DNA from: an uncultured Balneolaceae bacterium
GTDB lineage: Bacteria > Bacteroidota > Rhodothermia > Balneolales > Balneolaceae
Direction: 5' to 3'
Assembly: GCA_964590495.1 (NCBI GenBank)
Contig: CAZPWQ010000001.1
Location: forward strand, 13,502-77,501
Length of the DNA stretch: 64,000 nt
The position numbers were made by a program, and so were the translations under genes. This document shows positions 19,045-53,003 of this stretch, one piece after another; the first letter of the stretch is position 1, and every line of letters starts with the position of its first letter. The notes beneath the pieces were generated by a model. It made no database searches. It was not told where the DNA came from and saw only the letters and a list, made by a program, of their open reading frames with translations.

Positions 19045-22000
19045 TCAAAATCTTCTCGCATTATCACCCCTAATTTCAAAAAACTTAAGACTATCATCAT
19101 TTCGTGCGACAATTAAAATTGAAACACCATTCTGAAGTTCCACTTTTTTAACAGCTCTGATCTCACCCTGTACATGAAAACCACTTTCCCGGCTCATTAT
19201 ACTTTTATAGAAGTTATTTTCCCGGGTTAATACTATACCATAACCTGCGTCATACCGACCAACTTCCGGTTTTACATTATGCAGGTTACCACCCATCACA
19301 ATTTCGCTTTCTCCATTTCCTGTTAAATCAATTGATAAGTTCCCATATACAGGTGACAGCTGAGCCTGAAACGGCAATTCTTCAATTCGAAATTCTTTAT
19401 TACCATTATTCCATGCAACGATGCTTGCCAACTGGTTCACCCGGCTATAATGTGTTTCTTCAAGTTGACTATCAGTAAAAATATCATCTATAGTTTCGCC
19501 CGTAAATGACTTGAAGGATGGATATTTTGTATTCAAATACGGAATTTCGTCCATAAGATTATGGCGCAGAGCCATGGGATAACGCTTCTGGTTGTTAAAT
19601 GCTGATATTACCTGCTCTACTGTTCCGTTTTTGTTCAAATCTCCCGTCCACATTTCTATTGGTTTTGAACCTGATGCCCGAAAACGGGAATTCATTCCAT
19701 GATTTCCTGCCACTATATCGAAATATCCATCTCCATCCAGATCATCAACAGCCAGCGAATGCCACCATCCACTTGTGGTGTCCAGTCCGGGAAATTTTCC
19801 CTGTTCCAAAGCCCCTTCCTTGTTATCAAAAAACGTCAGCGGCATCCATTCGCCCGCCACCCATAAATCAGGGTAGCCGTCTCCTTCCATATCTGTCCAA
19901 ACTGCATCAGTTGTCATCCCCATTTCCATCATACCGGGAGCGATTTCTTCAGTTACATCTTTAAAAATTCCTTGTCCGTCATTTTCGAGAAGGTAACCTC
20001 TGGCAGGGAAACCAACGGCAAACGGTTTAAGTCGTACCCCAACAAACAGATCACTATCACCATCATTGTCATAATCGGCTGTTCTGACAACACTGGTGCT
20101 TTCATAACTCCAGCTCGGCAAGGGTTGCTTAGATCTTTCAAATGACAGCTGGCCCTGATTTATATATAACCTGTCTGCCAATGATGAACTGCTGGAAGGA
20201 AATTCGTTGCCCCCGCTTGCTACATACAAATCCATCAACCCGTCACCATCGGCATCAAAAAAAACACAATCCACATCCTCAGCAGATGCATCCTCTTCTA
20301 AAACTTCAACTTTTTTTGGAGTAAATTTGCTATTATCGTTCTGCAAAAAAAGAGCTCCCGCCTGATCTTTTGCCCCGCCAACATAAAAATCCTCCAATCC
20401 GTCTCCGTCAGCATCACCCACACATAATGCAGGTCCTTCGGTTGAGCGCATATGAAAAAGCAACCGGTCTCTTTTAAAATCTATAAACTCATTCTCCCGG
20501 TGCTTCCAGTTAATATCAAATTGATTGGTTACCTCTTTCAGGAGAGTATTTTCAACCTGTTGATTGTCAGACGGAGACAAAACGGAACTTCCACCATCTT
20601 CTTTAGAAGATTTATTTTGATCAACTGTCAACATCTGATTTGTTTCTAAATTTTCAAATTTTGAAACCGATTCGTCAGGCCACGTGATTACCAGTGAATC
20701 CAAACCTGCAATCTCGCCAAGCCCCAGATGCAACCGGTGATCCATGGTTGATTGAAAACCTCTGACAGGCATCTGTTCAGCGAACCATCGTCTGTCCCCT
20801 GCCCAAGCCGTTACCTGGGCCCCGAAGGCAAACTTGTTTTCGTTTGCACCTTTAAAGGATATTTGTAACCAACCGTTGTCGGGATTTACCTCGGTAGCCC
20901 TGTTTTCATAGACTGAGGCTTCGCTTTCAATATTATTGATAACCAGGTCCAGGTCTCCGTCATTATCCAGGTCACCATACGCAGAACCGTTTGAAAAACC
21001 GGGTTCATCCAGTCCCCATACAGCTGAAGAATCGGCAAACTGCATATTTCCCAGATTATGAAATGCATAATTCGATATCGGGGTTTGGGGTATTAAGTCA
21101 ACAAGCTGTTTAAAATCGACATCGTTGTCCCTTACAATTTTTCTTTGTACTTCTTCTTTTGAGATTTCATCCAGGTAATCGAGATTCGTAAGATCCCTGT
21201 AAATGCCGTTGGCCACGAAAATATCACGCCGCCCGTCGAGATCGAAATCGGCGATATTAGCCCCCCAACTCCAGTCTGTTGCCTCGACACCGGCCCATCT
21301 GCCAATCTCGCTGAAGGTTCCGTCTGTATTGTTATATTGAAGGGTATTGCGGGTAAACTGGTGATGAAATCCATTCTCTACATACTCTCTGTATCCTTCC
21401 CAGTCATCGAAGGTTGTAACAAGCTTTAACCGTGTTTCCGATTCCGGCAACATATCAGTTACAAATATTTCGGGATAGCCGTCATCATTCAAATCCGCAA
21501 TATCCGCCCCCATCGATGCGGCGCTGATACTGTTCATCGCTTCTTCAAGCACTTCATTGAAGGAACCGTCCCGGTTATTTATATACAGATAATCGCGTTC
21601 GAAAAAATCATTGGAAATGTAAACATCGGGCCAACCGTCCCTGTTTACATCTCCGACCGAAGCTCCCAGAGCAAATCCGAATTCGCTGCTGTATATACCT
21701 GCTTCACTGCTCACTTCGGTGAAATGTCCGCCGTCGTTCCGGTACAGCTTATCCCCGCCCTGCTCGTCTCTTATATTTCTGTCGGTTTTTTGCAGATCAA
21801 AGCTTCCTATAGCCCGATAGGAATTATTAGCAAGATATAAATCCAGGTCTCCATCTTTATCATAATCAAAAAATGTACCGTGAATTGACAAGGCATCATC
21901 AGCAATACCGTATTCTTCTGCCATTTCTGTGAAGGTAAGATCCCCGTTGTTGATGTAAAGCTCATTTTTCCTGTCATCTCCCTCAACTATTCCCGAATTA

Positions 22001-22410
22001 CAAACATAAATATCCACCAGGCCATCGCCGTTGACATCAGCTATGCTTACACCGGTCGACCAGGCCCGCTCACCTGCCACAGCGGCCTTTGCTGTAATAT
22101 CTTCAAACTTCATATCTCCATTGTTCAGATACAGCTTGTTACCTCCCATATTCGAAGTGAAGAAAATATCCAGAAGACCATCATTATTGATATCCCCGAG
22201 AGCCACACCACCTCCGTTATAAAAATTTCTGTAGCGATAGATATTAAATTCCTGCTTAAAAACCAGTTCATTGCGGAAATCTATATTTGTTTCCGAAGCA
22301 GGAAGGTTCCTGAAAAGAGTGGATTCACCGTTACCTTCATTTTTATTCGCCGTACATTCGAGTAAAAACAAGGCAGATGCAAAAAGAAAAAATAAATTGA
22401 TCAGCTTCAT
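19045..22410 (-). CDS. FG-GAP/VCBS repeat + UnbV/ASPIC (CRTAC1-like) lipoprotein A
   Basis: About 1121 aa from MKLINLFFLFASALFLLEC (the track ORF extends to 22449 and would overlap the upstream gene). Seven Ca-loop repeats (DINNDGLLDIF, DVNGDGLVDIY, DYDKDGDLDLY, DVNRDGWPDVY, DLNDDGYPEIF, DFDLDGRRDIF, DLDNDGDLDLV). UnbV-like block RGFQSTMDHRLHLGLGE. Second set of repeats (DADGDGLEDFY, DADGDGLMDLY, DYDNDGDSDLF, DMEGDGYPDLW, DLDGDGYFDIV...). Confidence 0.9.
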   Translation of the reverse strand: MKLINLFFLFASALFLLECTANKNEGNGESTLFRNLPASETNIDFRNELVFKQEFNIYRYRNFYNGGGVALGDINNDGLLDIFFTSNMGGNKLYLNNGDMKFEDITAKAAVAGERAWSTGVSIADVNGDGLVDIYVCNSGIVEGDDRKNELYINNGDLTFTEMAEEYGIADDALSIHGTFFDYDKDGDLDLYLANNSYRAIGSFDLQKTDRNIRDEQGGDKLYRNDGGHFTEVSSEAGIYSSEFGFALGASVGDVNRDGWPDVYISNDFFERDYLYINNRDGSFNEVLEEAMNSISAASMGADIADLNDDGYPEIFVTDMLPESETRLKLVTTFDDWEGYREYVENGFHHQFTRNTLQYNNTDGTFSEIGRWAGVEATDWSWGANIADFDLDGRRDIFVANGIYRDLTNLDYLDEISKEEVQRKIVRDNDVDFKQLVDLIPQTPISNYAFHNLGNMQFADSSAVWGLDEPGFSNGSAYGDLDNDGDLDLVINNIESEASVYENRATEVNPDNGWLQISFKGANENKFAFGAQVTAWAGDRRWFAEQMPVRGFQSTMDHRLHLGLGEIAGLDSLVITWPDESVSKFENLETNQMLTVDQNKSSKEDGGSSVLSPSDNQQVENTLLKEVTNQFDINWKHRENEFIDFKRDRLLFHMRSTEGPALCVGDADGDGLEDFYVGGAKDQAGALFLQNDNSKFTPKKVEVLEEDASAEDVDCVFFDADGDGLMDLYVASGGNEFPSSSSSLADRLYINQGQLSFERSKQPLPSWSYESTSVVRTADYDNDGDSDLFVGVRLKPFAVGFPARGYLLENDGQGIFKDVTEEIAPGMMEMGMTTDAVWTDMEGDGYPDLWVAGEWMPLTFFDNKEGALEQGKFPGLDTTSGWWHSLAVDDLDGDGYFDIVAGNHGMNSRFRASGSKPIEMWTGDLNKNGTVEQVISAFNNQKRYPMALRHNLMDEIPYLNTKYPSFKSFTGETIDDIFTDSQLEETHYSRVNQLASIVAWNNGNKEFRIEELPFQAQLSPVYGNLSIDLTGNGESEIVMGGNLHNVKPEVGRYDAGYGIVLTRENNFYKSIMSRESGFHVQGEIRAVKKVELQNGVSILIVARNDDSLKFFEIRGDNARRF

Positions 22411-22417
22411 AAATTTG

Positions 22418-25400
22418 TTAATTCTTAATAAACCAAAGGGGCGTATCATTATTCCTGGTAACCAGATACAATGTATCCGATTGGGTTTTCAGCGAATAGA
22501 TACCCCGTACTTCTCCGTGTAGTTCAAATCCGGTATCGGATAATTCCAGGTATTTCATCTTTTGATCCTTATCTATTTTATAAACTGTACCATAACTGGC
22601 ATCATACCTGCCAACTTCCGGTTTTACGCCAAACAGATTGCCCGCCAGTAACAAGTAGCGATTTTCTTCATCGCTGTTTACTGAATGAATTCCAAAAACA
22701 GGGGAAAATTGGCCATATTCATCCATCTTTTGTTGCTTGAAGTCACCCTTGCCGTTATTCCATAATATCATACTTTCCAACGAACGAATCTCCTTTACTA
22801 CCGAAGACTCAAGAATCTCATTGGGAAATATTTGAACTATAGATTTGTCCGCATAAGATGCATAAGTAGGAAATTGTGCCTGCAGAGATGGAATTTGATC
22901 CAACAGGTCGTCTCTTAGTGTTAATGGATAATCATCCTGCTGTTTGGAACGGGTAATGATTTGTTCAATACTGCCATTTTTATCATAATCATTAATCCAC
23001 ATTTTCAGAGGCTTATTCTCATCGGCCTTCAGCCGTGAATTTAATCCATAATTTCCAAGAATTATATCTTTAGATCCATCTCCATCCAGATCTGATATTT
23101 CAATCGATTGCCATAAACCTTCTGTTAAGGACAAATCCTTTTCAGAGGTGACTTCGGAAAATGAAGCCTGCCCTGTCTCTATAAAATCATTTTCAAATAC
23201 CCGCACCGGCATCCACTCTCCGACAATAAAAAGATCCATATCCCCGTCATCATCATAATCAAACCACTCTGCATCGGTAATCAGTCCTGTTTCAATTAAC
23301 CCCGGAGCGATCTCATCTGTTATGTTCTTGAAAATACCATCTCCGTCATTTACCAGCAGATTGCCATTAACTGGCAGCCCATATGCAAACGGCTTCAAAC
23401 GGGTACCGGTGAATAAATCGATATGACCGTCCTGGTTGAAGTCAACAGCTTTAACCACGGAAGTTACTTCGTATTTACTCACAGGAAGCGCGGCCTCAGA
23501 TTTTTCCCACGTCTCATCTCCATTATTAAGATAAAGTCGATCGCCCAGGGTGGTAGAACTGGCCGGAAATTCAGAACTCCCGCTTGCCACATATAAATCC
23601 AAGCTACCATTTCCGTTCGCATCAAACCATATACAAGAAGTATCCTCGGAATCCCGGTCTTCTGCAAATTGATGTTCATTTTTTTTGAGAAAGGTATGGT
23701 CCTGTCGTTGTATGAATACAGCTCCGGACTGCCCTTTGGCTCCCCCGATATAAAAATCATCCAGCCCGTCCTTGTTTACATCTGCGACACATGTCGGCGG
23801 CCCTTCGGCAGATCGTTTATGAAACAGCAGTTTATTCCGCTGAAAATCCTCAAAATCATTTTCCCTGTGTATAAAATCTATGGAGACCTTATCTGTTACC
23901 TCCTGGAAAAGAAGATTTCTCTTTTGTGAGTTGTTGTTAAGACGATTTCGCCTCGAAAGCGCTGTATCTTCCTGGTTAATCAGAAGTATTTGATTCGGCT
24001 GGATATCTGTTTGAAAACTGTTACTGCCATCAGGCCATTTGACCAGTAAAGAATCAACATTGCTGTTCTCACCCAATCCAAAATGTAGGCGATGATCAAC
24101 TGATGATTGGAAGCCTCGTCCCGGCATCTGTTCCCGGTAAAATAATCTGCCATTCGTCCATAGTTTGACAGTAGTTCCGATTGCCGAAGTATTCGGACTT
24201 TTACCTTTAAGCTCTACCATCAGCCAGTTATTTTCAGATGTATTGCTATTTGTACGATTGTGATATATATCAGCCTCCTGATTGGCATTATTAACAATTA
24301 AATCCAGAGTGCCATCATTATTAAGATCTGCGTAAGCAGCTCCGTTCGAAAAACCGGGTTCATCAAGTCCCCACGCTTTTGCTCTGTTTATAAAGCCCAG
24401 ACCGGCGGTACCGGAAAAGGCATAATTACTCACCGGAGTAGACGGCATCTCATCAAATAAAATTGAAATCGGCTTATCCTCCTCAACGACAGTTCTCAGC
24501 CTCTCCAGATTCATCCTGTCATTCACATAGTCCAGATCAGTGAGATCTTTTACTATTCCGTTAGTTACAAAAATATCATTATGACTATCATTGTTCAGAT
24601 CGGCTATTAATGTCGTCCAGCTCCAATCGGTAGCCTCGACACCTGCAAGCCGGCTTATCTCACTGAATGTATTCAACTGCAGTGTATCCGGTATGCCGCT
24701 TATGTCTGCAGTTAATTGTGACGATCCGTTATTCAACTGGAGCGTATTCCTTACAAATTGATAATGATAATCCTCTTTCACTTTATTCCTGTATTCGGTC
24801 CAACTGTCAAAAACCGTATTTGATTTTATTCTCTCATCCGATTCCGGAAGCATATCGGTAACATAGATATCCGGTCTTCCGTCATGGTTTACATCAGCTA
24901 TGTCGGCTCCCATCGAGCTTTGACTTATAGAAGGCATCAACGGTGGAAGTATTTCAGTAAATGTACCGTCACCATTATTCAAATAAAGATAATCTCTTTC
25001 AAAAAAATCATTGGATATATACATATCCGGCCAGCCGTCGTTATTTACATCACTAACTGCAACATCCAGCCCGAAACCTATCTTGCTGCTGTAGATCCCG
25101 GCCTGTTTGGTTACTTCCACAAATTTTGCCGGCCCACCGGATGTTTCTGACTCCCTGCTTCCTTTACTTTGCTTTGGGTTAATCAGTTCATTTCTAAATA
25201 GCCGGTCACCTCCTTTTTCATCATACACTTCCCGCAGTCCTTTTTTAACATCTATCCCCCGGAGTGCCTCGAATGAATTGTTGAGAAGATACATATCCAG
25301 ATCACCGTCACGATCATAATCAAAAAAAATGGCATCGGTGGCAAGTCCTGTGATATCCAGGCCGTATTCTCTTGACTTTTCAGTAAATGTGGGACTGTCT

Positions 25401-25918
25401 CCGCCTTCCGGCTGATTGCCATTATTGATGAATAGTTCATTGTGCCTGTTTTCACCACCCGGACTTCCGGATTTAACCACATAAATATCCAACAGGCCAT
25501 CCCCGTTAATATCCACCATAGTAACACCGGTCGACCATACATCATCTGCCGCAACACCCGCACTTTCTGTAATATCTTCAAACTCCAGATTTCCCCTATT
25601 GAGATACAACTTGTTAGCGACCTGATTACCGCTGAAATAGATATCCACCAGTCCATCATTATTTATATCACCGACTGCAACTCCGCCGCCATTGAAAAAA
25701 TTGCGATAGGTATAGGGATTAAGTTCTTTTGTAAATGTCAGTTCATTAATAAATTCAATTCCGCTGTGGTGTGACGGAAGTCTCTCAAACATCGTATTGG
25801 AAGGCATGTCATTTTTCTTTCCGCAACTAAACAATCCTATTAAAACGGCTATGAAAATAATAAAAGAAAAAAATAAATGGGGGATGCTTTTGATAGATCC
25901 CCTTTCCAGGTTTGTCAT
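22418..25918 (-). CDS. FG-GAP/VCBS repeat + UnbV/ASPIC (CRTAC1-like) lipoprotein B
   Basis: 1166 aa. Lipobox LIGLFSCGKKND. Same architecture as A (DINNDGLVDIY, DINGDGLLDIY, DYDRDGDLDMY, DVNNDGWPDMY, DVNHDGRPDIY..., RGFQSSVDHRLHFGLGE, DVNKDGLDDFY, DANGNGSLDLY, DFNQDGHIDLF, DYDDDGDMDLF, DLDGDGSKDII). Confidence 0.9.
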   Translation of the reverse strand: MTNLERGSIKSIPHLFFSFIIFIAVLIGLFSCGKKNDMPSNTMFERLPSHHSGIEFINELTFTKELNPYTYRNFFNGGGVAVGDINNDGLVDIYFSGNQVANKLYLNRGNLEFEDITESAGVAADDVWSTGVTMVDINGDGLLDIYVVKSGSPGGENRHNELFINNGNQPEGGDSPTFTEKSREYGLDITGLATDAIFFDYDRDGDLDMYLLNNSFEALRGIDVKKGLREVYDEKGGDRLFRNELINPKQSKGSRESETSGGPAKFVEVTKQAGIYSSKIGFGLDVAVSDVNNDGWPDMYISNDFFERDYLYLNNGDGTFTEILPPLMPSISQSSMGADIADVNHDGRPDIYVTDMLPESDERIKSNTVFDSWTEYRNKVKEDYHYQFVRNTLQLNNGSSQLTADISGIPDTLQLNTFSEISRLAGVEATDWSWTTLIADLNNDSHNDIFVTNGIVKDLTDLDYVNDRMNLERLRTVVEEDKPISILFDEMPSTPVSNYAFSGTAGLGFINRAKAWGLDEPGFSNGAAYADLNNDGTLDLIVNNANQEADIYHNRTNSNTSENNWLMVELKGKSPNTSAIGTTVKLWTNGRLFYREQMPGRGFQSSVDHRLHFGLGENSNVDSLLVKWPDGSNSFQTDIQPNQILLINQEDTALSRRNRLNNNSQKRNLLFQEVTDKVSIDFIHRENDFEDFQRNKLLFHKRSAEGPPTCVADVNKDGLDDFYIGGAKGQSGAVFIQRQDHTFLKKNEHQFAEDRDSEDTSCIWFDANGNGSLDLYVASGSSEFPASSTTLGDRLYLNNGDETWEKSEAALPVSKYEVTSVVKAVDFNQDGHIDLFTGTRLKPFAYGLPVNGNLLVNDGDGIFKNITDEIAPGLIETGLITDAEWFDYDDDGDMDLFIVGEWMPVRVFENDFIETGQASFSEVTSEKDLSLTEGLWQSIEISDLDGDGSKDIILGNYGLNSRLKADENKPLKMWINDYDKNGSIEQIITRSKQQDDYPLTLRDDLLDQIPSLQAQFPTYASYADKSIVQIFPNEILESSVVKEIRSLESMILWNNGKGDFKQQKMDEYGQFSPVFGIHSVNSDEENRYLLLAGNLFGVKPEVGRYDASYGTVYKIDKDQKMKYLELSDTGFELHGEVRGIYSLKTQSDTLYLVTRNNDTPLWFIKN

Positions 25919-26070: not shown

Positions 26071-26106
26071 AATAAATAAAAGGAGCATGTGACTTTCACA
26101 TACCCC
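26071..26106 (-). terminator. probable intrinsic terminator after susD-1
   Basis: On the minus strand, GGGGTATGTGA-aag-TCACATGCTCC hairpin followed by TTTTATTTATT. Confidence 0.55.
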
Positions 26107-26135
26107 TTTTAACTTACATACTATTATTAACTATA

Positions 26136-27791
26136 TCAGCCCTGACGTCCCTGGTAACCCGGATTTTGAACCAGGTTATCATTTGCTTCCAGCTGCTCCC
26201 GTGGAATGGGGAAAACGTTTCTGGTTGGGTCAGATACATCCTTCTCCCACCAAGGATCATTGAAGCGGGTTTCACCTTCGTTTCCCTGGAATCTGATAAG
26301 GTCCTGTCGTCTTAACAGTTCATAAAAGAATTCCCTGCCTCTCTCCTCAAGAATTAAATCCTCATCGAGAGAAGTGAAACTATCTACACCGGCACGTTCT
26401 CTGACCAGGTTTACCAGGCGAAGTGCTTCCGGATCATTGTTATTCAGTCTCCAGCGTGCTTCAGCCTGTGTCAATAATACGTCAGCATATCGAAAAACGA
26501 CGAAATCATTATCAAGGTTTGATGTTGAACCCGGTTCTATTTCATATTTTCCTACCCTGACTCCACACTGCCTGCAAGCATTCGGTTCCAGACTATTTAT
26601 TTCCGGTGTAAATGTCAATGGAGCTCCGTCCTGATCGAAATCAGAAAATACGGCATCGTCTTCTATGCGATTGCCCTGGGTATCAAATTGAGGTCCGGCC
26701 AGGAAATTTGACAGTCGATCATCAGTGGTACCAGTCGTTTCTTCACCCATTGATCCAATAACAGGACCCTGCGGTCCCGGATTCCCTTCTTCATCAATGT
26801 AAGAGCGATAGAATTCCTCAACCGTAGCATATCCGTTCCACGGTTGTTCCTGCAATCTAAAGGTAGATTGACTTCCGTAGTGAAGCGACATGTGATGAAT
26901 GTTGAAACCCTGCAGGAATACCCGGTCATAAGGTACTGCAAAGATTATTTCGGGAGATCCCGAATTATCTGTAACAAAATTATCCCGATAAACGGCACTC
27001 AGATTATAGTTACCCGAATTAATGATCTCATCCGTATGAGTGATAGCATCCTCCCATCGTGGTGTGCCTGTATAGACTTCGGAATTCAGATATAATTTAG
27101 CCAGTACAAAATGGACAACCCACCTGTTCATCCGTCCATAGGTTCCGCCGACATCCTCATCCACTTCGTCGAGTGCATTTAACAGTTCCTGCTCTACACA
27201 TTCGAAGAGCTGGGTACGCCCTTCCTGAAAATCAGAGCTGGGCTGGGAAGGTTCTTCCGGGGCATCCTCGAAGCTGGTGATAATCGGCACATTTCCGAAT
27301 GTGTCGAGCAACCAGTAATAGTAAAGAGCCCGCAGAGCTCTCAACTCGGCAATGAAAGCTTCGGCCAGTTCAGGATCGGCATTTCCGGCCTCCACTGCAG
27401 ATTCAAACTGGAAGATAAGACGGTTCGTGTTATTCACACCTGAAAACAAAAATTGCCAGGTGTTGTTAAAGTATCCTTCTTCGTAGGTAAAACTATGGCG
27501 ATGCATCCGAAGCCATATTCCACCGTCAAACCAGTCCTGGCCTCTCTGGGGAATGACAAACTCGTCGGTAGATACCTCCTGAATGGAAGAGAAACCATTA
27601 TGTCCGCCCAGCCCCTCGGGGCCGAGAACGGTATAGGCATCGCCCATGGCCGAAACAAATTCCGTTTCATTCTGAAAGAAATTCTCTCCGGTTACTTCAG
27701 AAGATACAGGTACCTCTGCATCGGTACAAGAGACAATAACCATCGTTACGGTTAGCAACACACCTACAATGATTTTTCGGTAAAGTTTCAT
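26136..27791 (-). CDS. susD: RagB/SusD-family nutrient-binding outer membrane lipoprotein (pair 1)
   Basis: Lipobox MVIVSCTDAEV. SusD-like helical core (ELRALRALYYYWLLDTFGNVPIITSFE, LAKLYLNSEVYTGTP, FRYADVLLTQAEARWRL, REFFYELLRRQDLIRF). Lies immediately downstream of susC-1. The track ORF extends to 27803. Confidence 0.93.
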   Translation of the reverse strand: MKLYRKIIVGVLLTVTMVIVSCTDAEVPVSSEVTGENFFQNETEFVSAMGDAYTVLGPEGLGGHNGFSSIQEVSTDEFVIPQRGQDWFDGGIWLRMHRHSFTYEEGYFNNTWQFLFSGVNNTNRLIFQFESAVEAGNADPELAEAFIAELRALRALYYYWLLDTFGNVPIITSFEDAPEEPSQPSSDFQEGRTQLFECVEQELLNALDEVDEDVGGTYGRMNRWVVHFVLAKLYLNSEVYTGTPRWEDAITHTDEIINSGNYNLSAVYRDNFVTDNSGSPEIIFAVPYDRVFLQGFNIHHMSLHYGSQSTFRLQEQPWNGYATVEEFYRSYIDEEGNPGPQGPVIGSMGEETTGTTDDRLSNFLAGPQFDTQGNRIEDDAVFSDFDQDGAPLTFTPEINSLEPNACRQCGVRVGKYEIEPGSTSNLDNDFVVFRYADVLLTQAEARWRLNNNDPEALRLVNLVRERAGVDSFTSLDEDLILEERGREFFYELLRRQDLIRFQGNEGETRFNDPWWEKDVSDPTRNVFPIPREQLEANDNLVQNPGYQGRQG

Positions 27792-27833
27792 TTGTGTAAA
27801 CATAGCTTTGATAATTTTGTATTAGAACAATTT

Positions 27834-30800: not shown

Positions 30801-30905
30801 GAAGCCTAAAACCAATAAAGCCGCAAAACTATACAGCACTATTCTTTTGATTAGTTCTGTATAAGATGGCAGCTCTTTTCGTATTAACTGTATCGATCTA
30901 ATCAT
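27834..30905 (-). CDS. susC: SusC/RagA-family TonB-linked outer membrane protein (pair 1)
   Basis: Signal ...LVLGFSFNEAQAQQ. CarboxypepD_reg-like ISGTVTDAEDGSPLPSVNITVQGT...GQYSLEV. Plug VVVGYGTQQRKQITGSVSSV...IQGKVPGLTV...IEVLKDASASAIYGTRGSAGVILVTTK. C-terminal ...ARSVSVGINLDF. No N-terminal STN/anti-sigma signalling extension. The track ORF extends to 30956. Confidence 0.93.
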   Translation of the reverse strand: MIRSIQLIRKELPSYTELIKRIVLYSFAALLVLGFSFNEAQAQQTEISGTVTDAEDGSPLPSVNITVQGTTIGTSTDLNGQYSLEVPADADSLVYSFVGYLSITEPIDGRTEINISLQPDVRMLEDVVVVGYGTQQRKQITGSVSSVRAEDFVSGNVNTATELIQGKVPGLTVTNQGGGDPNSDPTVRLRGISSFGANQEPLVVVDGVLGGSLDNIDPNDIASIEVLKDASASAIYGTRGSAGVILVTTKSGERGPEGQSVSVNYNGFVTIEGIENQLDVLNANEFRQLAVDFREVHDLEENEFDIFDGQTSTNWYDLITQTGSNNVHNLSLSGGGENSVYRVSGNYRDRTGIQKQTGFEQLSGRVNLQQWALDNRLKFTLNLGATNRQEDQGLAIGEEGPFEFATTFNPTLPVRADGFETTGGFFEQPLFRFLNPVAIIETGDRTFERDNFNGSLRADYEFEQLIPNLSASAFYSLETTNSLFREFFAKTSKFGGGATETDLGPGQAQRVDNRSSSELFEATVNYLADVDQLRIETIAGYSWQNFIDETTVASGGDFITDVVGFNNLSFAQDFSQGEGTVGSFKGENRLIGFFGRANLNWDDTYFINGSYRREASSRFGADNRWGDFWAAGAGVEVTNLVELPFFERFRLRGSFGVTGQDAPENGLAVQRFEPSGNFFVNGEFVQSFSPASNPNPDLKWEEKRELNLGFDFEAVDSRLTGTFEYFNKVTDDLLFQVAVPVPPNLFPTTWRNVGELETNGFEAALDLEVIRQNNLTWSSGFTFSTFETILEEFVTDETQFISNAGSPGQNDRPLIRVQEGRPIGEIFGPEFAEIGPDGGWLFFDRNGNKVSPDEITREDERVIGNGLPDFELGWNNSVNWRNWDFNTFFRGAFGHDLVNTFRLFYEAPNQITAYNVLSSALDLTELREAPQFSSFQVEDASFVRLQNASLGYTIPFSEATSIRRLRLYVSANNLFTITGYDGIDPEVRFTDPIDDDNPLAPGIERRNQWFTARSVSVGINLDF

Positions 30906-31105
30906 AAATGTTTCCCCTCGATTTTTAGTTTTATTGTAAAAGAAACATTTCAACAACTGTTGAGGTCTCTTCTTCTTTTAGATAGTTCCGGGCGGCAAGC
31001 CACCCGGAAAAAAACCAGTTAGATACTTTTTTACTTGATGATCAATAAATTTTAAAAACTTAATAAAAACCCAAAAAGCAATATACCATCAGTATTTGAT
31101 GATAT

Positions 31106-40814: not shown

Positions 40815-41229
40815 TGAAGATATTCCACTGCTGATATATTGCAATTTTCTTTTAGAAGGGCCGGAATTAAGCAGAAAGCTAAATCTCCGTATCGCATTCG
40901 TAATCATAGTATTCCCCTTTGGTTATTATTTACTTATAAAGTCAAATCGCTCGAATTATCGACGGGCTCTATTACTTCAACAAAATGTGATTCTGTTGCA
41001 TCAATTGAGTTATCCCTATCGCCAGTCACTACCTAAAAAAGGCATTAACAAATACAAGCTATTTCCAGCTTTATAATTGCCCCTTTTTTTCAAAGAAGCA
41101 AATTTTTTTAACAAGTATGAAATTTTTTTTTCTCTTTATACAAGGAGATGAAAATGTTGCTAAAATTTATTTAATACAGGTTAGACCGACCAGTCTAAAC
41201 CAATTAAATTCCTCCCATTCGTCATTTGC

Positions 41230-45180: not shown

Positions 45181-45214
45181 ATAAATTCTCTGATATCCCT
45201 GATAGAAATTTATG

Positions 45215-46054
45215 TTAATTATCACCTAACGGACGAATCCAGATATTGCGAAACCTGACGAGATCGCCATGATCCTGCAATCTCAACGGCATCTTATCGG
45301 GATGAGCCACATAGCGTGGTTTATCGATATAAACTGTGGGGCCTTTTAACTCCACATTATTCAAAATCAGGACTCCATTGTGAAATGCAGTCACACGGGC
45401 GGATGATTGCAGATTACCCGCTTCATCAAATTCCGGCGCTGAAAACACAATATCATAAGCCTGCCACTCTCCCGGTGGTCTGCTTGCATTAACAAGCGGT
45501 ATGTACTGTTTATAAATACTTCCGGCCTGACCATTGGAATAGGTTTCATTTTCAAACGAATTAAGAATCTGGATTTCATACAAGCTCATTAGAAATACGC
45601 CACTATTACTGTATCCCTGCCCGCTTTTGCCTTCATCAACCGGTGCCAGCCACTCAATATGAAGCTGAAAATTATCGAACTTCTGCCTGGTTTCAATAGC
45701 CCCGGTGCCCGGATTCACGACTAAATCACCGTCGGAAATATTCCATTGGGCTTCTTCATGGTCATAATTGTCGTCCCACTTTTCAAACATCTTCTCAACT
45801 CCGTCTGCTGTTGTAGGCTCACCCCGGAATTGCGGTTTTTGCCATTCGGACAAATCCTCTCCGTCAAATAATACGATGGCATCGGAAGGCGGATGATCAA
45901 GTCCGAGCAAATCGCCGGGAGTAACTACCGGAGGCACAGGTTCCCAGACCTCGCTTTCTTCAGGCTTGACATCCTGTGCCTGAACGGTCATAAAGCACAG
46001 AGTAAAGATACTTAACAGCACCATCAATTTGGGAGAATTGTCTGATTGAGTCAT
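45215..46054 (-). CDS. DUF1080 (3-keto-disaccharide hydrolase family) protein, secreted
   Basis: Signal LSIFTLCFMTVQAQ. FQLHIEWLAPVDEGKSGQGYSNSGVFLMSLYEIQILNS; VTAFHNGVLILNNVEL; LRLQDHGDLVRFRNIWIRPL. Confidence 0.9.
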   Translation of the reverse strand: MTQSDNSPKLMVLLSIFTLCFMTVQAQDVKPEESEVWEPVPPVVTPGDLLGLDHPPSDAIVLFDGEDLSEWQKPQFRGEPTTADGVEKMFEKWDDNYDHEEAQWNISDGDLVVNPGTGAIETRQKFDNFQLHIEWLAPVDEGKSGQGYSNSGVFLMSLYEIQILNSFENETYSNGQAGSIYKQYIPLVNASRPPGEWQAYDIVFSAPEFDEAGNLQSSARVTAFHNGVLILNNVELKGPTVYIDKPRYVAHPDKMPLRLQDHGDLVRFRNIWIRPLGDN

Positions 46055-46645: not shown

Positions 46646-47692
46646 TCAATCCAATCCGAGCACCTTCCGGTTAAGTTCATCATCAGCACCGGCACCGGCA
46701 AAATCGTCGAACGCTTTTTCTGTTTTTTGAATAATATGTTCGGCAATAAAGGGTGCCCCTTCAGCGGCTCCCTGCTCGGGATGTTTCAGGCAGCACTCCC
46801 ATTCCAGCACGGGCCAGCCTTCGAAATCGTACTGAGCCAGCTTGCTGAAAATAGCTTTGAAATCTACGTCACCATCACCCAGCGACCGGAAACGTCCGGG
46901 ACGATCTACCCAGCTTTGATAGCCGCCATACACGCCGGAACGGCCGGTAGGATTGAATTCGGCATCCTTTACATGGAACATGCGAATGCGTTCGTGATAG
47001 ATATCGATAAATTGAATGTAATCAAGCTGCTGCAATACAAAGTGGCTGGGGTCGTACAGAATATTCGCACGGGGATGGTTATCGGTCACCTCAAGAAACT
47101 TTTCAAATGTAACTCCATCGTGCAGATCTTCTCCGGGATGTAATTCGTAACATACATCCACGCCGTTTTCATCAAAGACATCCAGGATCGGCTTCCATCG
47201 TTTTGCCAGCTCTTCAAATCCGGCTTCCACGAGTCCCGCCGGACGCTGAGGCCATGGATACATCGTATGCCACAAAAGTGCGCCGGAAAAACTAACATGT
47301 TCGGTAATGCCGAGATTCTGACTGGCTTTGGCTGCCAATTCCAGCTGGTTTATTGCCCATTCGGTACGTTCATCGGGCTTACCGTGTAACTCCTCCGGGG
47401 CAAAACCATCGAACAATTTGTCATAGGCTGGATGTACGGCCACAAGCTGGCCCTGAAGGTGTGTCGACAACTCCGTGATTTCCACACCGGCTTCGTTTAC
47501 AACACCCTTGATCTCATCAGCATAGGTCTGGCTTTCAGCCAGTTTTTCGAGATCAACACATCGCGGATCCCAGGTGGGAATCTGAACTCCTTCGTACCCC
47601 AGGCCGGCTGCCCATTCGCAGATTGATTTTAAATTATTAAACGGTTCTTCATCGCCCATAAACTGGGCCAAAAATATTGCTGGACCTTTCAT
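46646..47692 (-). CDS. xylose-isomerase-like TIM-barrel protein (sugar phosphate isomerase/epimerase family), cytoplasmic
   Basis: 348 aa with no signal peptide. AAGLGYEGVQIPTWD, VCYELHPGEDLHD, ILYDPSHFVLQQLDY, MFHVKDAEF, PVLEWECCLKHPEQGAAEG. Confidence 0.9.
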   Translation of the reverse strand: MKGPAIFLAQFMGDEEPFNNLKSICEWAAGLGYEGVQIPTWDPRCVDLEKLAESQTYADEIKGVVNEAGVEITELSTHLQGQLVAVHPAYDKLFDGFAPEELHGKPDERTEWAINQLELAAKASQNLGITEHVSFSGALLWHTMYPWPQRPAGLVEAGFEELAKRWKPILDVFDENGVDVCYELHPGEDLHDGVTFEKFLEVTDNHPRANILYDPSHFVLQQLDYIQFIDIYHERIRMFHVKDAEFNPTGRSGVYGGYQSWVDRPGRFRSLGDGDVDFKAIFSKLAQYDFEGWPVLEWECCLKHPEQGAAEGAPFIAEHIIQKTEKAFDDFAGAGADDELNRKVLGLD

Positions 47693-47868: not shown

Positions 47869-49026
47869 CTATTGTTTAAATTTTGTCCACTTCTTATCGC
47901 TTTTATTGGATTCAATCAGCGTATCGATAAAGGCGATGCCGCGCACACCGTCGTGTACTGTTGGGAAATCCAGATGCTCAGGGGCGGGTTTCTCTCCGCT
48001 TAACCGGCTGCCCAGTGCCTGTGCAAAGTTTCTGTAAACATTTGCAAAGGCTTCTATGAAACCCTCGGGATGACCTGCGGGAAGCCTGGTGTTTAGTGTC
48101 GCATTTTCACCGATATAAGGATTTCCTGTTCGATATTTTTCTTCAGGTTGTCCCTGGTGTTTGACGTACAACGTATTTGGCTCTTCCTGATGCCATTCCA
48201 ACCCGCCTTTTTCTCCATAGACATAAATTTTGAGCGAGTTCTCTTCACCCACGCTTATCTGGCTAGCATGAAGCACACCTTTTGCACCGTTTTCAAAACG
48301 CAATAATACGTTTCCGTCGTCATCCAATGGACGGCCTTCTACAAAGGTACTCAGGTCGGCACACAGCTCGGAAATTTGCAAACCGGTTACATATTCAGCC
48401 AGGTTCTCGGCATGCGTTCCGATATCTCCCATGGCTCCTGCCGGACCTGCTTTCTCAGGATCGGTACGCCACGAGGCCTGTTTATTCCCTTCCTCCTCCA
48501 GTTTGGTGGCGAGCCATCCCTGCGGATACTCTACTACAATCTTCCGGATTTCTCCCAGGTCGCCCTCTTCAACCATCTGGCGCGCCTGTTTTACCATCGG
48601 ATACCCGGTATAATTGTGCGTCAGTGCAAACAGCAATCCGGTATCCTCAACCAGTGACTGCAGCTCCCTGGCTTCCTTCAGATTTACCGTCATTGGCTTG
48701 TCACATACAACGTGGAATCCATTTTCCAAAGCCAGTTTGGCCGGTGGAAAATGCAAATGATTCGGAGTGACGATAGATACAAAATCCATCCTTTCCCCTT
48801 CCGGAAATTCTTTCTCCTTCTTGATCATCTCCTCAAACGAACCGTATGCACGATCTTCGTCGAGAAACAGCTCTTTGCCGGTAGCCTTTGATTTTTCAGG
48901 ACTGCTGCTGAAAGCTCCACACACCAGTTCGATATACCCGTCGAGTGCGGCAGCTTTACGATGGACTTCTCCGATAAAAGCCCCTTTGCCACCGCCGACC
49001 ATTCCCATTCTCACTTTTCTTTCCAT
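47869..49026 (-). CDS. Gfo/Idh/MocA-family NAD(P)-dependent oxidoreductase, cytoplasmic
   Basis: 385 aa. Rossmann start VRMGMVGGGKGAFIGEVHRKAA; DFVSIVTPNHLHFPPAKLALENGFHVVCDKPM. No signal peptide. Confidence 0.92.
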   Translation of the reverse strand: MERKVRMGMVGGGKGAFIGEVHRKAAALDGYIELVCGAFSSSPEKSKATGKELFLDEDRAYGSFEEMIKKEKEFPEGERMDFVSIVTPNHLHFPPAKLALENGFHVVCDKPMTVNLKEARELQSLVEDTGLLFALTHNYTGYPMVKQARQMVEEGDLGEIRKIVVEYPQGWLATKLEEEGNKQASWRTDPEKAGPAGAMGDIGTHAENLAEYVTGLQISELCADLSTFVEGRPLDDDGNVLLRFENGAKGVLHASQISVGEENSLKIYVYGEKGGLEWHQEEPNTLYVKHQGQPEEKYRTGNPYIGENATLNTRLPAGHPEGFIEAFANVYRNFAQALGSRLSGEKPAPEHLDFPTVHDGVRGIAFIDTLIESNKSDKKWTKFKQ

Positions 49027-49382: not shown

Positions 49383-52300
49383 TTAGTCAGATGCTAAATC
49401 CCCGGAAAAGGAAACTGTTCTTGTATTCCGCCTGAAGTCGGTAATATCTATTGATTGCACATTATCATTTATCAGTATAAAACGGCCGGAGGAGGATAAA
49501 AAAGAGGAACCATAGTAAAATTCAACTTTGCGGCTGCTTCCATCTTCATAATGTATGACTGCAGATTGATCCATGTCATCAGCCTGGAAAATTTTCGAGG
49601 TCTGTGTCGTTTGGAAAAGTTTTAAAGGTCCCCGGTTTTGAGCCGTTGCAACCAGCGGTGAATCATTTACTCCTTTCAATTTTACCAATGCCTTGGCATC
49701 CCCCGGCACAAAAAAGCCGCTCTCTTCAAAACTCTTCACATCAAAACCACCCGTTCCGTCTCCGGTCAGCACCAGCCCGTTCAGAGCATCCGCTCTGCTC
49801 ACCGACAATTCCATGCCATGGTCATTACCGGTTAACACCACATCAAGATTCCCATCTCCATTCACATCTTCTGCTAAACAGCCATAAACAGGCGCCCACT
49901 GTGCTTCATCAGGCAACGGAGTGATGACAAATTTCCCGTTCCCCCTATTTTCTATGAAAGAAGTTTCCATATGGTTAGCCTGGTAATTCAATATGCTATT
50001 GGTTTCAAATAGTGAAAGAATTTCATCCATCGTAACCCGGGCAAAGGCATGATTGGTTTCATACTTTTCCCCGATAGCAGGTAACTGTTTAGTCAGGTCT
50101 CCAAGTCCGTGATATGGAACTTCAACCCTGTAGCCATCACGTTCCATTTTGCTGTATATGGATGGAATCGCATCGAACATGCCGTTATTATCAAAATCGG
50201 AAGCATATATATTTACCGGATACTTCTCATCTGCCTGGAAATAGGTATTTGTTCCAATGTTACCGGCTATATAATCAATATCACCATCATTATCGAAATC
50301 CCCACCGCACAGACTGTTCCACCAGCCCTTATAATCAGCCAGACCTGTGCTGTCAGTTACATCAACAAAGCTGCCGGAATCATTTTTTAAAAACCTGAGC
50401 GACATCCATTCGCCCGCCAATATCAGATCGACCCATCCGTCGTTATTAAAATCGGTCCATAGTGCATCAGAAACCATCCCAAATTCATCAAGCAGAGGAG
50501 CTACTTCCTTATTGGCAATTTGAAAACGTATCTCCCCGTGGTCTGAGACATTCTCAAGGATATAGCTGTCCACCGGTTCCGGATACCGTTGAGGGCTTAC
50601 CCGTCCTGCTACAAACAAGTCCAGGTCTCCGTCCCTGTCAAAATCTGCTGCCCGTACCACCGAACCGCTTGAGAGAAAAGACGGAAGAGCATCATTCACC
50701 AGGCGGAATCTACCCTCCTCATTTATAAACAGCCGGTCTTGGTACGCCTTGTCTCCACGGGGATGCTCATAGCTCCCGCTTACTATAAAGAGATCGTCGT
50801 CGCCATCACCATCGGCATCAAAAAAAAGGCTGCTCAGTTCCTCTTCCCGGTTTTCCCGGTCATCCCCCAAAAGAAGATCTTCTTCTGAAAACGTTCCATC
50901 CTGTTGCTGAATAAGGAATACTCCTCTATGATCGAATGATCCGGATATATAAATATCGTTTAATCCGTTGCTGTTTACGTCGCCAACCGCCAGCCCCGGT
51001 CCGTATTGGGACAGTTTATGTGGCAGCAGCGGCTGAACATTGAAATCATTGTAATCCCATTCTTCATGCACATAATCGATAGAAAGCTCATCTGTAATAT
51101 TCTGAAACAAACTCTTTTGCCGGTCGGGGGGATTCGATTCCTCGTTCGCCTTTTCTGATGCGTTCTTTTGATACACCGTAAGTTCCTGGTTGGATTCGAC
51201 ATTCCGGATCACCTGGCTCTTGCCGCCGGGCCAGTTCACTGTCAGTTTATCTGCTATTGTATTGTTACCCAGACCAAAATGGACAACCGGTTCCACGCTG
51301 GATATATACCCTCTGTATGTGGTATATTCCTGATATTGCTTTTCTCCATCACCATACTCAATTTCGACATGTGCTCCCAGTCCCATGGTATTATCTCCCG
51401 TTCCCTCGAACCTGATTCTCAAATAATTATTTTCTTCGGGATGTATTTCAGACAGGCGATTTCGAAAAATAAATACGGGATCATTAATATTGTTTACCAC
51501 CAGATCCAGACTGCCGTCATTATTGAAGTCGGCCTGAGCGGCCCCATAGGAAAAGGAGGGTATTTTCATACCCCACTTCTCGGTTACATCCTCAAAACGC
51601 AAGCTGTGGTTATCCCCCTCCCCTTTATTTCGGTAGATGTAATTACTGACTTTTTCAGAAGGTAACTGCTCCAACAAGTCTTGTATGGATAAATAGCGGG
51701 GATACATCTGAAACAAATCTTCAAAATCATTATCTGTCATATCCTTTGGAAAACCGTTCGTAATAAGGATATCCCGCCATCCGTCATTGTCAAAATCCAT
51801 CAGCAGGGGAGCCCAGCTCCAGTCTGTTTCTGCTATACCTGAATGGATAGCTACATCACTGTAAAACGGCTGACCGGTTTCAGGATTCTTACCCTGATAA
51901 ACCTGTAAGACATTTCTTACGAACTGGGAATCATAATTATTTTTTTTGTTTTTCAGATAAGCCGAATAATCATTAGCCCGGATCATTTTTTTCTTTCTCT
52001 CATTATCCTCGGGACGCATATCCACCACCACTACTTCCGGGAAACCATCGTTATTAAGATCAGCCACGTCGTTACCCATGGCGGCATAAGCCGTATGTTT
52101 AAAAATCTGTCCGGATTGATCCGTAAAATTGCCGTTCCCATCATTTAGATAAAGTAAGTCATTGGTAAAAAAATCATTAGCAATGATAATATCTTTCGAT
52201 CCGTCGCGGTTTATATCGGCAATATTCAACCCCAGGCCATAACCTGGTTCTGAAATTCCAGCTTCTTCGCTGACTTCCCGGAACCATGGATGTCCCAGAG

Positions 52301-53003
52301 AATCAACTCCCTCATTTCTGTAAAGTATGTCTTTTGTTACACCTATATCCGGAATTCTTTGGGGGCCATCCCGGCGCATTGAATTATTTCTGTTGAACTG
52401 GTTCACCATCAAAAACAGATCCAGATCTCCATCATTATCATAATCAAAAAAAGTAGCCATAGTGGTGTGGGCTGTATCCGCAACATTGTACTCGGCGGCC
52501 ATCTCCCTGAATACCGGTACGTCATTCTCATTTACGCCCTGGTTAATGTAAAAAAGATTGGTGCGGTGTTTCGATTCGTCATTAGTTGTGGCACAAACAT
52601 AAATATCCATAAGACCGTCATTATTAATATCCACTACAGCCACCCCCGAGCTCCAAGTTCCCTCAGCAGCTACATTCGCTTCTTCCGAAACATTATCGAA
52701 TTTAAAGTCCCCCATGTTCAGGTAAAGCTCGTTATCCACCATAAGACCGGTAAAATAGATATCCTGCAGGCCATTATTATTAAAATCAGCAATGGCTACT
52801 CCCCCACCATTATATATATTTGTATAATTGATAATATTCAGCGTGTCATTCTCCGCCATCTCATTCGAAAACGTCACCCCCGTCTCTTCGGCAGATAATC
52901 GTTCAAATAGCGGCTCATTTTTAGTACAGGCTGCTGTCAGGAGAGCTAACACCAGTCCCATTAGCCATAGTATCTGCCTGTCCCTGTCATGTTCTTTCAT
53001 CAA
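49383..53003 (-). CDS. FG-GAP/VCBS repeat + UnbV/ASPIC (CRTAC1-like) lipoprotein D
   Basis: 1206 aa. Lipobox LALLTAACTKNE. Repeats DFNNNGLQDIY, DINNDGLMDIY, DYDNDGDLDLF, DINRDGSKDII, DLNNDGFPEVV, DFDNDGWRDIL, DFNNDGSLDLV. UnbV-like RGYISSVEPVVHFGLGN. Second propeller DVNSNGLNDIY, DADGDGDDDLF, DFDRDGDLDLF, DFNNDGWVDLI, DFDNDGDIDYI, DVNGDGNLDVV. Confidence 0.9.
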   Translation of the reverse strand: MMKEHDRDRQILWLMGLVLALLTAACTKNEPLFERLSAEETGVTFSNEMAENDTLNIINYTNIYNGGGVAIADFNNNGLQDIYFTGLMVDNELYLNMGDFKFDNVSEEANVAAEGTWSSGVAVVDINNDGLMDIYVCATTNDESKHRTNLFYINQGVNENDVPVFREMAAEYNVADTAHTTMATFFDYDNDGDLDLFLMVNQFNRNNSMRRDGPQRIPDIGVTKDILYRNEGVDSLGHPWFREVSEEAGISEPGYGLGLNIADINRDGSKDIIIANDFFTNDLLYLNDGNGNFTDQSGQIFKHTAYAAMGNDVADLNNDGFPEVVVVDMRPEDNERKKKMIRANDYSAYLKNKKNNYDSQFVRNVLQVYQGKNPETGQPFYSDVAIHSGIAETDWSWAPLLMDFDNDGWRDILITNGFPKDMTDNDFEDLFQMYPRYLSIQDLLEQLPSEKVSNYIYRNKGEGDNHSLRFEDVTEKWGMKIPSFSYGAAQADFNNDGSLDLVVNNINDPVFIFRNRLSEIHPEENNYLRIRFEGTGDNTMGLGAHVEIEYGDGEKQYQEYTTYRGYISSVEPVVHFGLGNNTIADKLTVNWPGGKSQVIRNVESNQELTVYQKNASEKANEESNPPDRQKSLFQNITDELSIDYVHEEWDYNDFNVQPLLPHKLSQYGPGLAVGDVNSNGLNDIYISGSFDHRGVFLIQQQDGTFSEEDLLLGDDRENREEELSSLFFDADGDGDDDLFIVSGSYEHPRGDKAYQDRLFINEEGRFRLVNDALPSFLSSGSVVRAADFDRDGDLDLFVAGRVSPQRYPEPVDSYILENVSDHGEIRFQIANKEVAPLLDEFGMVSDALWTDFNNDGWVDLILAGEWMSLRFLKNDSGSFVDVTDSTGLADYKGWWNSLCGGDFDNDGDIDYIAGNIGTNTYFQADEKYPVNIYASDFDNNGMFDAIPSIYSKMERDGYRVEVPYHGLGDLTKQLPAIGEKYETNHAFARVTMDEILSLFETNSILNYQANHMETSFIENRGNGKFVITPLPDEAQWAPVYGCLAEDVNGDGNLDVVLTGNDHGMELSVSRADALNGLVLTGDGTGGFDVKSFEESGFFVPGDAKALVKLKGVNDSPLVATAQNRGPLKLFQTTQTSKIFQADDMDQSAVIHYEDGSSRKVEFYYGSSFLSSSGRFILINDNVQSIDITDFRRNTRTVSFSGDLASD

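Follow-up and report, generated by a model that had tools for sequence, protein, structure and literature searches.

We analysed a 64,000-nucleotide stretch of DNA from an uncultured Balneolaceae bacterium (hereafter the window), whose minus strand carries an array in which two SusC/SusD pairs are combined with four very large lipoproteins, CRT1 to CRT4, related to vertebrate CRTAC1. Each CRT protein is a lipoprotein with two calcium-loop β-propellers around a UnbV/ASPIC domain, and in related genomes the CRT genes almost always lie directly after susD, in orthogroups specific to their position in a recurring gene cassette. SusC/SusD (SusCD) loci are the main route of complex-nutrient uptake in Bacteroidota and their relatives, and their function is usually read from the carbohydrate-active enzymes (CAZymes) attached to them. 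The best explanation of the locus as a whole, which we favour with slightly better than even confidence, is that SusCD/CRT surface uptake feeds the cleavage of glycosides by a 3-keto route, encoded by oxidative genes around the cassette. Jointly with that reading, and no more firmly, we take the cassette to be a widespread and uncharacterised system of the polysaccharide utilisation locus (PUL) type, of which the window would hold a lineage-specific version made of two units, each with its own SusCD pair.

Four double-propeller lipoproteins and two SusC/SusD pairs

The array comprises 14 consecutive open reading frames (ORFs) on the minus strand and spans 19045-53003, as read by a first-pass annotation of the window and borne out by the ORF list. 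They encode the four CRT proteins, two SusC/SusD pairs, a protein of 190 amino acids (aa) named orf190, a DUF7133-cupredoxin fusion, a DUF1080 protein with a PA14 domain, a further DUF1080 protein, a TIM barrel and a Gfo/Idh/MocA oxidoreductase. The CRT, SusC/SusD and orf190 genes are:

19045..22449, minus strand: CRT1, 1134-aa lipoprotein in which UnbV/ASPIC sits between two FG-GAP propellers; orthologue of cassette position b
22418..25918, minus strand: CRT2, 1166-aa paralogue (lipobox LFSC) whose ORF runs 32 nt into the annotated start of CRT1
26136..27803, minus strand: SusD1, 555 aa (PF07980 and PF14322)
27834..30956, minus strand: SusC1, 1040 aa as the longest ORF (TIGR04056, 695 bits; CarbopepD_reg_2, Plug and barrel by Pfam)
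31582..34980, minus strand: CRT3, 1132-aa paralogue; orthologue of cassette position c
35325..35897, minus strand: orf190, small lipoprotein with lipobox LLSC; a cassette gene with a fixed position in related loci
36176..37831, minus strand: SusD2, 551 aa (Pfam)
37851..40907, minus strand: SusC2, 1018 aa (Pfam)
49383..53003, minus strand: CRT4, divergent 1206-aa paralogue with a C-terminal tail of about 70 aa, belonging to a large subfamily of its own

The four CRT proteins had been described as paralogues of 1132-1206 aa with a lipobox, calcium loops and a UnbV block, and this description holds by Pfam, by alignment and by loop counts. All four contain FG-GAP_3/FG-GAP repeats and a single UnbV_ASPIC domain at about residues 540-610, with PF13517 and PF07593 exceeding their cut-offs in each. 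CRT2-4 are 38-49% identical to CRT1, and CRT4 shares 35-38% identity with the other CRT proteins and with the cassette positions. Counts of the D-x-D/N-x-D/N-G loop come to 12-14 per protein: the N-terminal half holds 6 or 7 and the C-terminal half 5-7. The lipobox cysteine, present in each of the four, is kept in 154 of 157 full-length family members from several phyla, the set over which residue conservation was computed, and positions +2 to +6 past this cysteine are rich in K, D and E. Such a K/D/E-rich stretch resembles the surface-export signals of Bacteroidota lipoproteins.

CRT1 was modelled with AlphaFold2 from 62 sequences (pLDDT 89, pTM 0.89). The model opens with an N-terminal propeller, continues with a β-sandwich at about residues 525-610 and, after a short stretch of disordered linker, closes with another propeller. 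When the full model was used as a Foldseek query against the PDB, the only specific match was murine CRTAC1 (9ETN; E 3e-27, TM 0.70 on the target), which is also matched by sequence over the N-terminal half of CRT1 (phmmer, E 4e-15). The remaining matches were generic multi-propeller scaffolds such as DDB1, with a TM of about 0.15, and no CAZyme fold was among the top 50. Vertebrate CRTAC1 has a single propeller and ends in an EGF-like domain, at a total length of about 600 aa. The N-terminal half of the CRT proteins is like CRTAC1 and UnbV_ASPIC proteins in its calcium-loop FG-GAP propeller followed by UnbV/ASPIC; unlike CRTAC1, the CRTs are bacterial lipoproteins tied to SusCD, they carry an extra C-terminal propeller of about 470 aa, and no EGF domain was matched in them by Pfam. 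No NCBIfam model matches the CRT proteins either. Outside the calcium loops, a set of polar motifs is at least 95% conserved: SNDFFERDYLY at 279-289, DMLP at 332-335, Q364 and N368, WSW at 393-395, H650, E724 and Q1030.

The family is very large. All 8000 of the 8000 candidates scored match at E ≤1e-10. At E ≤1e-30 the family comprises 6,056 clusters (50% identity), and of the best 150 most can be aligned over nearly the full length, at 38-54% identity. Database names for these relatives are generic ("VCBS repeat-containing", "CRTAC1 family", "enediyne biosynthesis protein E4"), and the best named matches come from Fodinibius, Aliifodinibius and Balneolaceae at 60-66% identity.

Both SusC/SusD pairs proposed by the first-pass annotation are present and paralogous, at 56% identity for SusC1 and SusC2 and 58% for SusD1 and SusD2, and neither SusC matches the STN domain (PF07660). 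NCBIfam also finds the TIGR04057 signature. SusC1 probably starts further in than its longest ORF. Orf190 matches no Pfam or NCBIfam family; its AlphaFold2 model (pLDDT 92.6) predicts an α/β fold with no meaningful match in the PDB (best Foldseek E 4e-3, TM 0.34-0.41).

Two smaller observations concern the CRT genes themselves. Taken as longest ORFs, CRT2 and CRT1 share 32 nt (22418-22449). Met14 (MKLINLFF...) is a possible alternative start of CRT1, and with it the two genes would lie a few nucleotides apart; they are tightly coupled whichever start holds. In the C-terminal 70 or so residues of CRT4 (49383-49600), the motif YYGSSFLSSSGRF resembles the UnbV/ASPIC core motif.

A SusC-SusD-CRT cassette conserved in several phyla

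Relatives were sought in one genome per species; 583 were confirmed, and the analysis went on with the 80 best loci. These represent Cytophagales, Flavobacteriales, Saprospiraceae/Chitinophagales, Bacteroidales, Balneolaceae, Rhodothermales/Salinivenus, Gemmatimonadota and Calditrichota. Their gene content was read by tblastn with the window proteins and by all-against-all clustering of the locus ORFs. SusC was present in 57-62 and SusD in 57-61 of the 80 loci, and 65 had at least two CRT genes. Among the 57 loci with sufficient upstream DNA, SusD lay immediately upstream of the first CRT gene in 47. The adjacency of SusCD and CRT genes is thus not due to chance, and the first-pass expectation that it extends beyond this genome proved right.

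Gene order is conserved as well. The arrangement SusC-SusD-CRT-orf190-CRT-CRT recurs in Cytophagales, Flavobacteriales, Saprospiraceae/Chitinophagales and Bacteroidales, and shorter SusC-SusD-CRT(-CRT) forms occur in Gemmatimonadota and Calditrichota. The three CRT positions, a, b and c, correspond to orthogroups: b matches CRT1 at about 50% identity, c matches CRT3 at a mean identity of 43.5%, and a is weakly assigned to CRT2 or CRT1. From these orthogroup positions and the gene order, the window can be read as a split cassette, SusC2-SusD2-orf190-CRT3 plus SusC1-SusD1-CRT2-CRT1, with CRT4 upstream. Orf190 occurs in 30-33 of the 80 loci, always in the same position, and has 125 detectable homologues; since it recurs in this fixed order, it is a genuine cassette gene. 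CRT4-type genes sit in SusCD cassettes in two loci (L085 and L087), where they adjoin FG-GAP genes of about 515 aa (range 500-520 aa). The window has a comparable neighbour:

53169..54677, plus strand: membrane-anchored single FG-GAP propeller, 502 aa (Pfam), divergent from CRT4

The cassette is thus very common across several phyla, and its signature proteins bear only generic names. In open-access papers and preprints we found none that links UnbV/ASPIC, CRTAC1 or FG-GAP proteins to SusC/SusD or to PULs. If the CRT proteins are the surface component of these systems, they would form a new class of PUL accessory proteins and offer a first functional handle on bacterial CRTAC1/UnbV proteins. 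A stronger version of this proposal is tentative, and we hold it to be somewhat unlikely: the CRTs and the 190-aa lipoprotein would be an obligate, unrecognised class of SusCD partner, either new enzymes or a heteromeric capture device, that defines a PUL type in thousands of genomes of at least four phyla and, in Balneolaceae, couples import to 3-keto cleavage.

A hairpin follows susD in both units of the window:

26077..26111, minus strand: terminator-like hairpin 1, 16-bp stem then a T run, about 25 nt past the SusD1 stop
36123..36156, minus strand: terminator-like hairpin 2, 15-bp stem then a T run, about 20 nt past the SusD2 stop

Hairpins were found after susD in all six relatives that were folded (L081-L085 and L087), with different sequences and the structure kept. 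In the window units and these six relatives alike they are GC-rich and strong, are accompanied by a T run and lie 20-40 nt beyond the susD stop. They probably represent a terminator or attenuator that is conserved at the boundary of susCD and the propeller genes. Elsewhere in the array, neighbouring genes are 300-600 nt apart. Hairpins and gaps together suggest that SusCD yields more transcript than the genes downstream of it. Searches for other signals gave little: Rfam at gathering thresholds returned no RNA family in the window, a sigma-70 promoter scan did not exceed the shuffled expectation, and the Bacteroidota -7 motif TAnnTTTG occurred 14 times on the minus strand of the array, only two of these being intergenic against about 1.3 expected, which makes that scan uninformative.

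Could the CRT proteins be enzymes?

β-propeller lyase and hydrolase families exist, among them PL11, PL24/25, PL42, GH74 and GH145. The CRT proteins might likewise form a new carbohydrate-active family at the cell surface, such as lyases or hydrolases that depend on calcium and work in the cleft formed by the two propellers; they would cut a polymer for SusCD import and leave the oxidative genes to complete the breakdown. The CRTs are unusually well conserved for surface binding proteins (41-54% identity across phyla), they have many near-invariant polar residues outside the calcium loops, they fall into three position-specific orthogroups of fixed order, and by Pfam the array encodes no other candidate for a polymer-cleaving enzyme. 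On the other side, the CRTs match no glycoside hydrolase (GH) or polysaccharide lyase (PL) family in Pfam, the propeller families named above included (E ≤0.01), and their only specific Foldseek match, CRTAC1, is a non-enzymatic extracellular protein, all others staying at a TM of about 0.15. We regard such an enzymatic role as unlikely, and prefer the reading in which the CRTs would capture or process the substrate at the surface and glycoside cleavage would fall to the oxidative genes.

Oxidative genes encode a putative 3-keto-glycoside pathway

The Pfam search covered the 14 array products and 17 other ORFs of at least 150 aa, with every ORF of this size from 13 to 58 kb included. No GH, PL, carbohydrate esterase (CE), sulfatase or peptidase family was found in the array products or in the scanned flanking ORFs. 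Regulator families (hybrid two-component systems, SusR, extracytoplasmic-function sigma and anti-sigma factors, LacI and others) were equally absent from the scanned ORFs of the window, and the leftover small ORFs, judged by eye only, show none. The first-pass annotation had seen neither a classical CAZyme or peptidase nor a regulator, and its reading stands for the array products and the flanks. The genes that surround the cassette, at 13-19 kb and 41-49 kb, are instead oxidative:

13064-14821, plus strand: GMC flavoprotein dehydrogenase (Pfam), no export signal
14832-15395, plus strand: Gluconate_2-dh3 small subunit with a twin-arginine translocation (Tat) signal, motif MNRREALKRL
15553-16275, minus strand: DUF1080 protein (PF06439), 240 aa, Sec signal
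16406-17410, minus strand: xylose-isomerase-like TIM barrel, 334 aa, Tat signal; PDB 4OVX, E 9e-105
17619..18878, plus strand: NupG/LacY-type transporter of the major facilitator superfamily (MFS; PF03825, 341 bits), candidate inner-membrane importer
41230..43284, minus strand: DUF7133 propeller (PVC-type dehydrogenase-like) fused to an auracyanin/azurin-type blue-copper domain (Pfam/NCBIfam), Sec signal
43291..45225, minus strand: lipoprotein with DUF1080 (PF06439) and a PA14 carbohydrate-binding domain, N-terminus FFFQGC-NKAEEE with lipobox; same architecture in locus L054
45215..46054, minus strand: secreted DUF1080 protein (PF06439, 148 bits; PDB 4QHZ, E 4e-62), Sec signal
46646..47692, minus strand: TIM barrel, cytoplasmic orthologue of 2-hydroxy-3-keto-glucal hydratase (8RO4), no signal peptide
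47869..49026, minus strand: Gfo/Idh/MocA oxidoreductase, candidate 3-keto-sugar reductase or dehydrogenase, cytoplasmic (Pfam, NCBIfam; PDB 3V5N, E 4e-124)

The closest match in this set is that of the TIM barrel at 46646-47692 to PDB 8RO4 (E 1e-183), which covers residues 1-347 of 348 at about 75% identity; we found no open-access paper under the name "2-hydroxy-3-keto-glucal hydratase". The nearest solved relatives of the GMC gene are the large subunits of fructose and glucose dehydrogenases, and together with its Tat-exported subunit it is a candidate for a dehydrogenase of the glycoside 3-dehydrogenase type. PF06439 occurs in three window genes (43291-45225, 45215-46054 and 15553-16275). 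The DUF1080 family has been described as one of 3-keto-glycoside lyases/hydratases (bioRxiv 10.1101/2024.03.25.586180; PMC8121099), and sugar-phosphate-isomerase-like TIM barrels as 3-keto-β-glucoside lyases, with Gfo/Idh/MocA enzymes as 3-dehydrogenases (bioRxiv 10.1101/2024.03.25.586180). At the level of these families, the DUF1080 genes and the Tat-exported TIM barrel, which also has weak matches to C-glycoside deglycosidases, are candidate exported 3-keto-glycoside lyases. In Agrobacterium tumefaciens the operon runs GlycDH (GMC plus Tat protein)-OGE-HYD-Gfo (PMC10628242), and it is from this operon that the window Gfo enzyme takes its candidate role as reductase or dehydrogenase; it carries no Tat signal, and its score on the BT_2158 model is 36 bits against a cut-off of 750. 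In the DUF7133-cupredoxin protein the copper ligands C-x4-H-x4-M are intact, and the PDB match to auracyanin has an E of 1e-14. Read from family membership, the oxidative genes form a recognisable pathway of oxidation, elimination, hydration and reduction, with a predicted counterpart for each step in the window.

The link between the array and oxidative genes, proposed in the first-pass annotation for the module at 41-49 kb, is kept in all four Balneolaceae relatives examined (L081-L084), in which oxidative genes follow directly after the cassette. An AP_endonuc_2 TIM barrel and DUF1080 are found in 4/4, and a NupG/LacY-type MFS gene follows the cassette in three (L081, L082 and L084). L081 and L083 have GMC with Gluconate_2-dh3 and a Gfo gene, and the other two have DUF7133 dehydrogenase-like genes, one of which sits just before SusC in L082. 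This linkage is kept at about 60% protein identity despite rearrangements. The DUF7133 relatives in L082 and L084 carry HEAT repeats and cytochrome c, not cupredoxin, a swap which suggests interchangeable electron-transfer modules on a periplasmic dehydrogenase.

The following sequence of events can be proposed. The CRT lipoproteins would reach the cell surface, guided by the K/D/E-rich residues after their lipid cysteine, and there, with orf190, would partner SusCD in capturing or processing the substrate. The imported glycoside or oligosaccharide would be cleaved by the 3-keto-glycoside route in place of Koshland glycosidases. C3 would be oxidised in the periplasm by the GMC/Tat-subunit dehydrogenase and/or the propeller-cupredoxin protein; the secreted DUF1080 proteins would then carry out the elimination along with the Tat-exported TIM barrel; the product would be taken up by the MFS carrier; the cytoplasmic hydratase would hydrate 2-hydroxy-3-keto-glucal; and the Gfo enzyme would reduce the hydration product. 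The export signals of the oxidative genes fit these proposed compartments. The Balneolaceae version suggests that a SusCD importer can pair with oxidative glycoside cleavage in place of hydrolases, and PUL prediction based on CAZymes would miss such loci.

Partner genes of the cassette outside Balneolaceae

Outside Balneolaceae the cassette keeps other company:

26/80 loci: 451-aa PAP2 protein directly after the last CRT gene
19/80 loci: GH37, GH65, GH13, GH97 or GH100-like, combined
11/80 loci: divergent LacI
9/80 loci: SSF transporter
8/80 loci: GyrI-like protein
7/80 loci: MFS transporter
6/80 loci: FGGY kinase
3/80 loci: PfkB (fructokinase-type) kinase

The PAP2 protein is an orthologue of the vanadium iodoperoxidase of Zobellia galactanivorans (4CIT, E 8e-168; for example L015:19794-21149, and in L003, L006, L019, L041, L056 and L062). 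The GH genes are often interleaved with the cassette, with GH65 or GH13 placed after the last CRT gene and ahead of the PAP2 gene. The LacI gene is transcribed divergently from susC, and genes for trehalase, sugar kinases and MFS transporters lie nearby in other loci. Given the LacI and GH partners, the cassette elsewhere follows the ordinary PUL scheme. The recurrent non-Balneolaceae partners (PAP2, LacI, GHs, SSF, GyrI-like protein and kinases) do not occur within the window, and tblastn of GH13/37/65/97/100-like representatives from related loci against the window gave nothing. The non-canonical, hydrolase-free scheme of the first-pass annotation therefore survives in part: the window has no Koshland-type enzyme, but it does have recognisable, predicted glycoside-cleaving 3-keto enzymes, and LacI (11 loci) and GH (19 loci) partners are attached elsewhere. 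As the DUF1080 proteins, the 8RO4-like hydratase and the Gfo enzyme match the published route, the locus would be better described as non-Koshland than as enzyme-less.

The partners LacI, GH13/37/65/97, GH100-like and PfkB give a weak hint at a substrate of the α-glucoside type (trehalose, sucrose, α-glucan), and the GH partners, taken with the fact that the 3-keto operon of Bacteroides has a trehalose phenotype, suggest the same in a loose way. On account of the GH37, GH65, GH13, GH100-like, fructokinase-type kinase and glycerol genes of other loci we considered one single substrate, such as trehalose, sucrose, glucosylglycerol or another compatible solute, and reduced this to a weak hint, because xylose, amidase and glyoxalase genes also occur. 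Two further kinds of neighbourhood adjoin the cassette: FGGY, DAO/GlpD and MIP genes resembling a glycerol-utilisation set in L011 and L027, and FGGY, a 441-aa AP_endonuc_2/xylose-isomerase-like protein and SSF resembling a xylose-utilisation set in L019, L063 and L066. Both make it harder to argue for any one substrate. Amidase and glyoxalase genes are also among the neighbours elsewhere.

Alternatively, the SusCD/CRT cassette might work independently of the oxidative genes beside it and import something outside the 3-keto pathway, possibly a non-glycan ligand such as a protein or peptide, as the RagAB-type SusCD homologues do. Independence would fit the absence of oxidative genes from most non-Balneolaceae loci, the terminators and long gaps that split the units, the nature of CRTAC1 as a protein-binding extracellular matrix protein, and the amidase, glyoxalase or haloperoxidase genes that adjoin the cassette in some loci. 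It is at odds with the linkage kept in the window and in 4/4 Balneolaceae relatives, and with the sugar-specific partners (GH65/GH13, LacI, trehalase, sugar kinases and MFS) interleaved with or near the cassette elsewhere, and we consider it improbable.

The reading that we prefer, SusCD/CRT uptake at the surface feeding 3-keto cleavage, has to bear several points that weigh against it. The 80 loci are those closest to CRT1 and do not sample the superfamily at random. Outside Balneolaceae, oxidative genes are rare within 10 kb of the cassette (DUF1080 in 4/80 loci, Gfo in 2-3/80). The CRT proteins have no carbohydrate-active relative by Pfam or Foldseek. We infer their surface exposure from sequence, through an export signal not established for Balneolota. 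The neighbours are heterogeneous, with glycerol, xylose, amidase and glyoxalase genes among them, so that any guess at the substrate is weak. Finally, the first-pass annotation treated the array as one unit, and this view has to be given up: the strong hairpins after each susD indicate several transcription units and, with the gaps of 300-600 nt, make a single 34-kb operon unlikely.

Relation to known systems

The locus resembles the PULs of Bacteroidota, of which Sus is the paradigm, in its tandem susC/susD with the TIGR04056 signature and in the lipoprotein genes placed right downstream, the usual place of surface glycan-binding proteins or enzymes; in other lineages of the cassette, LacI regulator and GH13/37/65/97 genes are attached, as in Sus-type PULs. 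It differs from them in that the window has no GH, PL or CE gene and no regulator, in that the downstream lipoproteins are double β-propellers of 1100-1200 aa and not β-sandwich proteins of the SusE/F type, and in that breakdown is predicted to proceed via oxidation and elimination. Its host family, Balneolaceae, stands outside Bacteroidota proper, and the cassette is also found in Gemmatimonadota and Calditrichota. By the minimal definition of a PUL, a susC/susD pair, the locus is a PUL; by the presence of CAZymes and a regulator, in this genome, it is not.

The oxidative genes recall the 3-keto clusters of Bacteroides (BT2156-2160), Alistipes (AL1-5) and A. tumefaciens, which likewise combine GMC and a Tat subunit, Gfo/Idh/MocA, TIM barrels and DUF1080. 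Unlike those clusters, the window genes lie in two blocks flanking the SusCD/CRT cassette, include a DUF1080-PA14 lipoprotein and a propeller-cupredoxin fusion as extras, and are accompanied by no DUF6377-type regulator in the window; the window Gfo enzyme, unlike BT2158, lacks a Tat signal. Linkage to a SusCD transporter does not appear in the cluster descriptions that served for this comparison.

Beyond the array, from 54764 to the end of the window at 64000, the minus strand carries more outer-membrane uptake genes. These include a TonB-dependent receptor of 759 aa at 55725-58004, followed by a 316-aa lipoprotein, two DUF4249 proteins at 58641-59552 and 60162-61130, and, at the window edge, a third SusD at 61255-63060.

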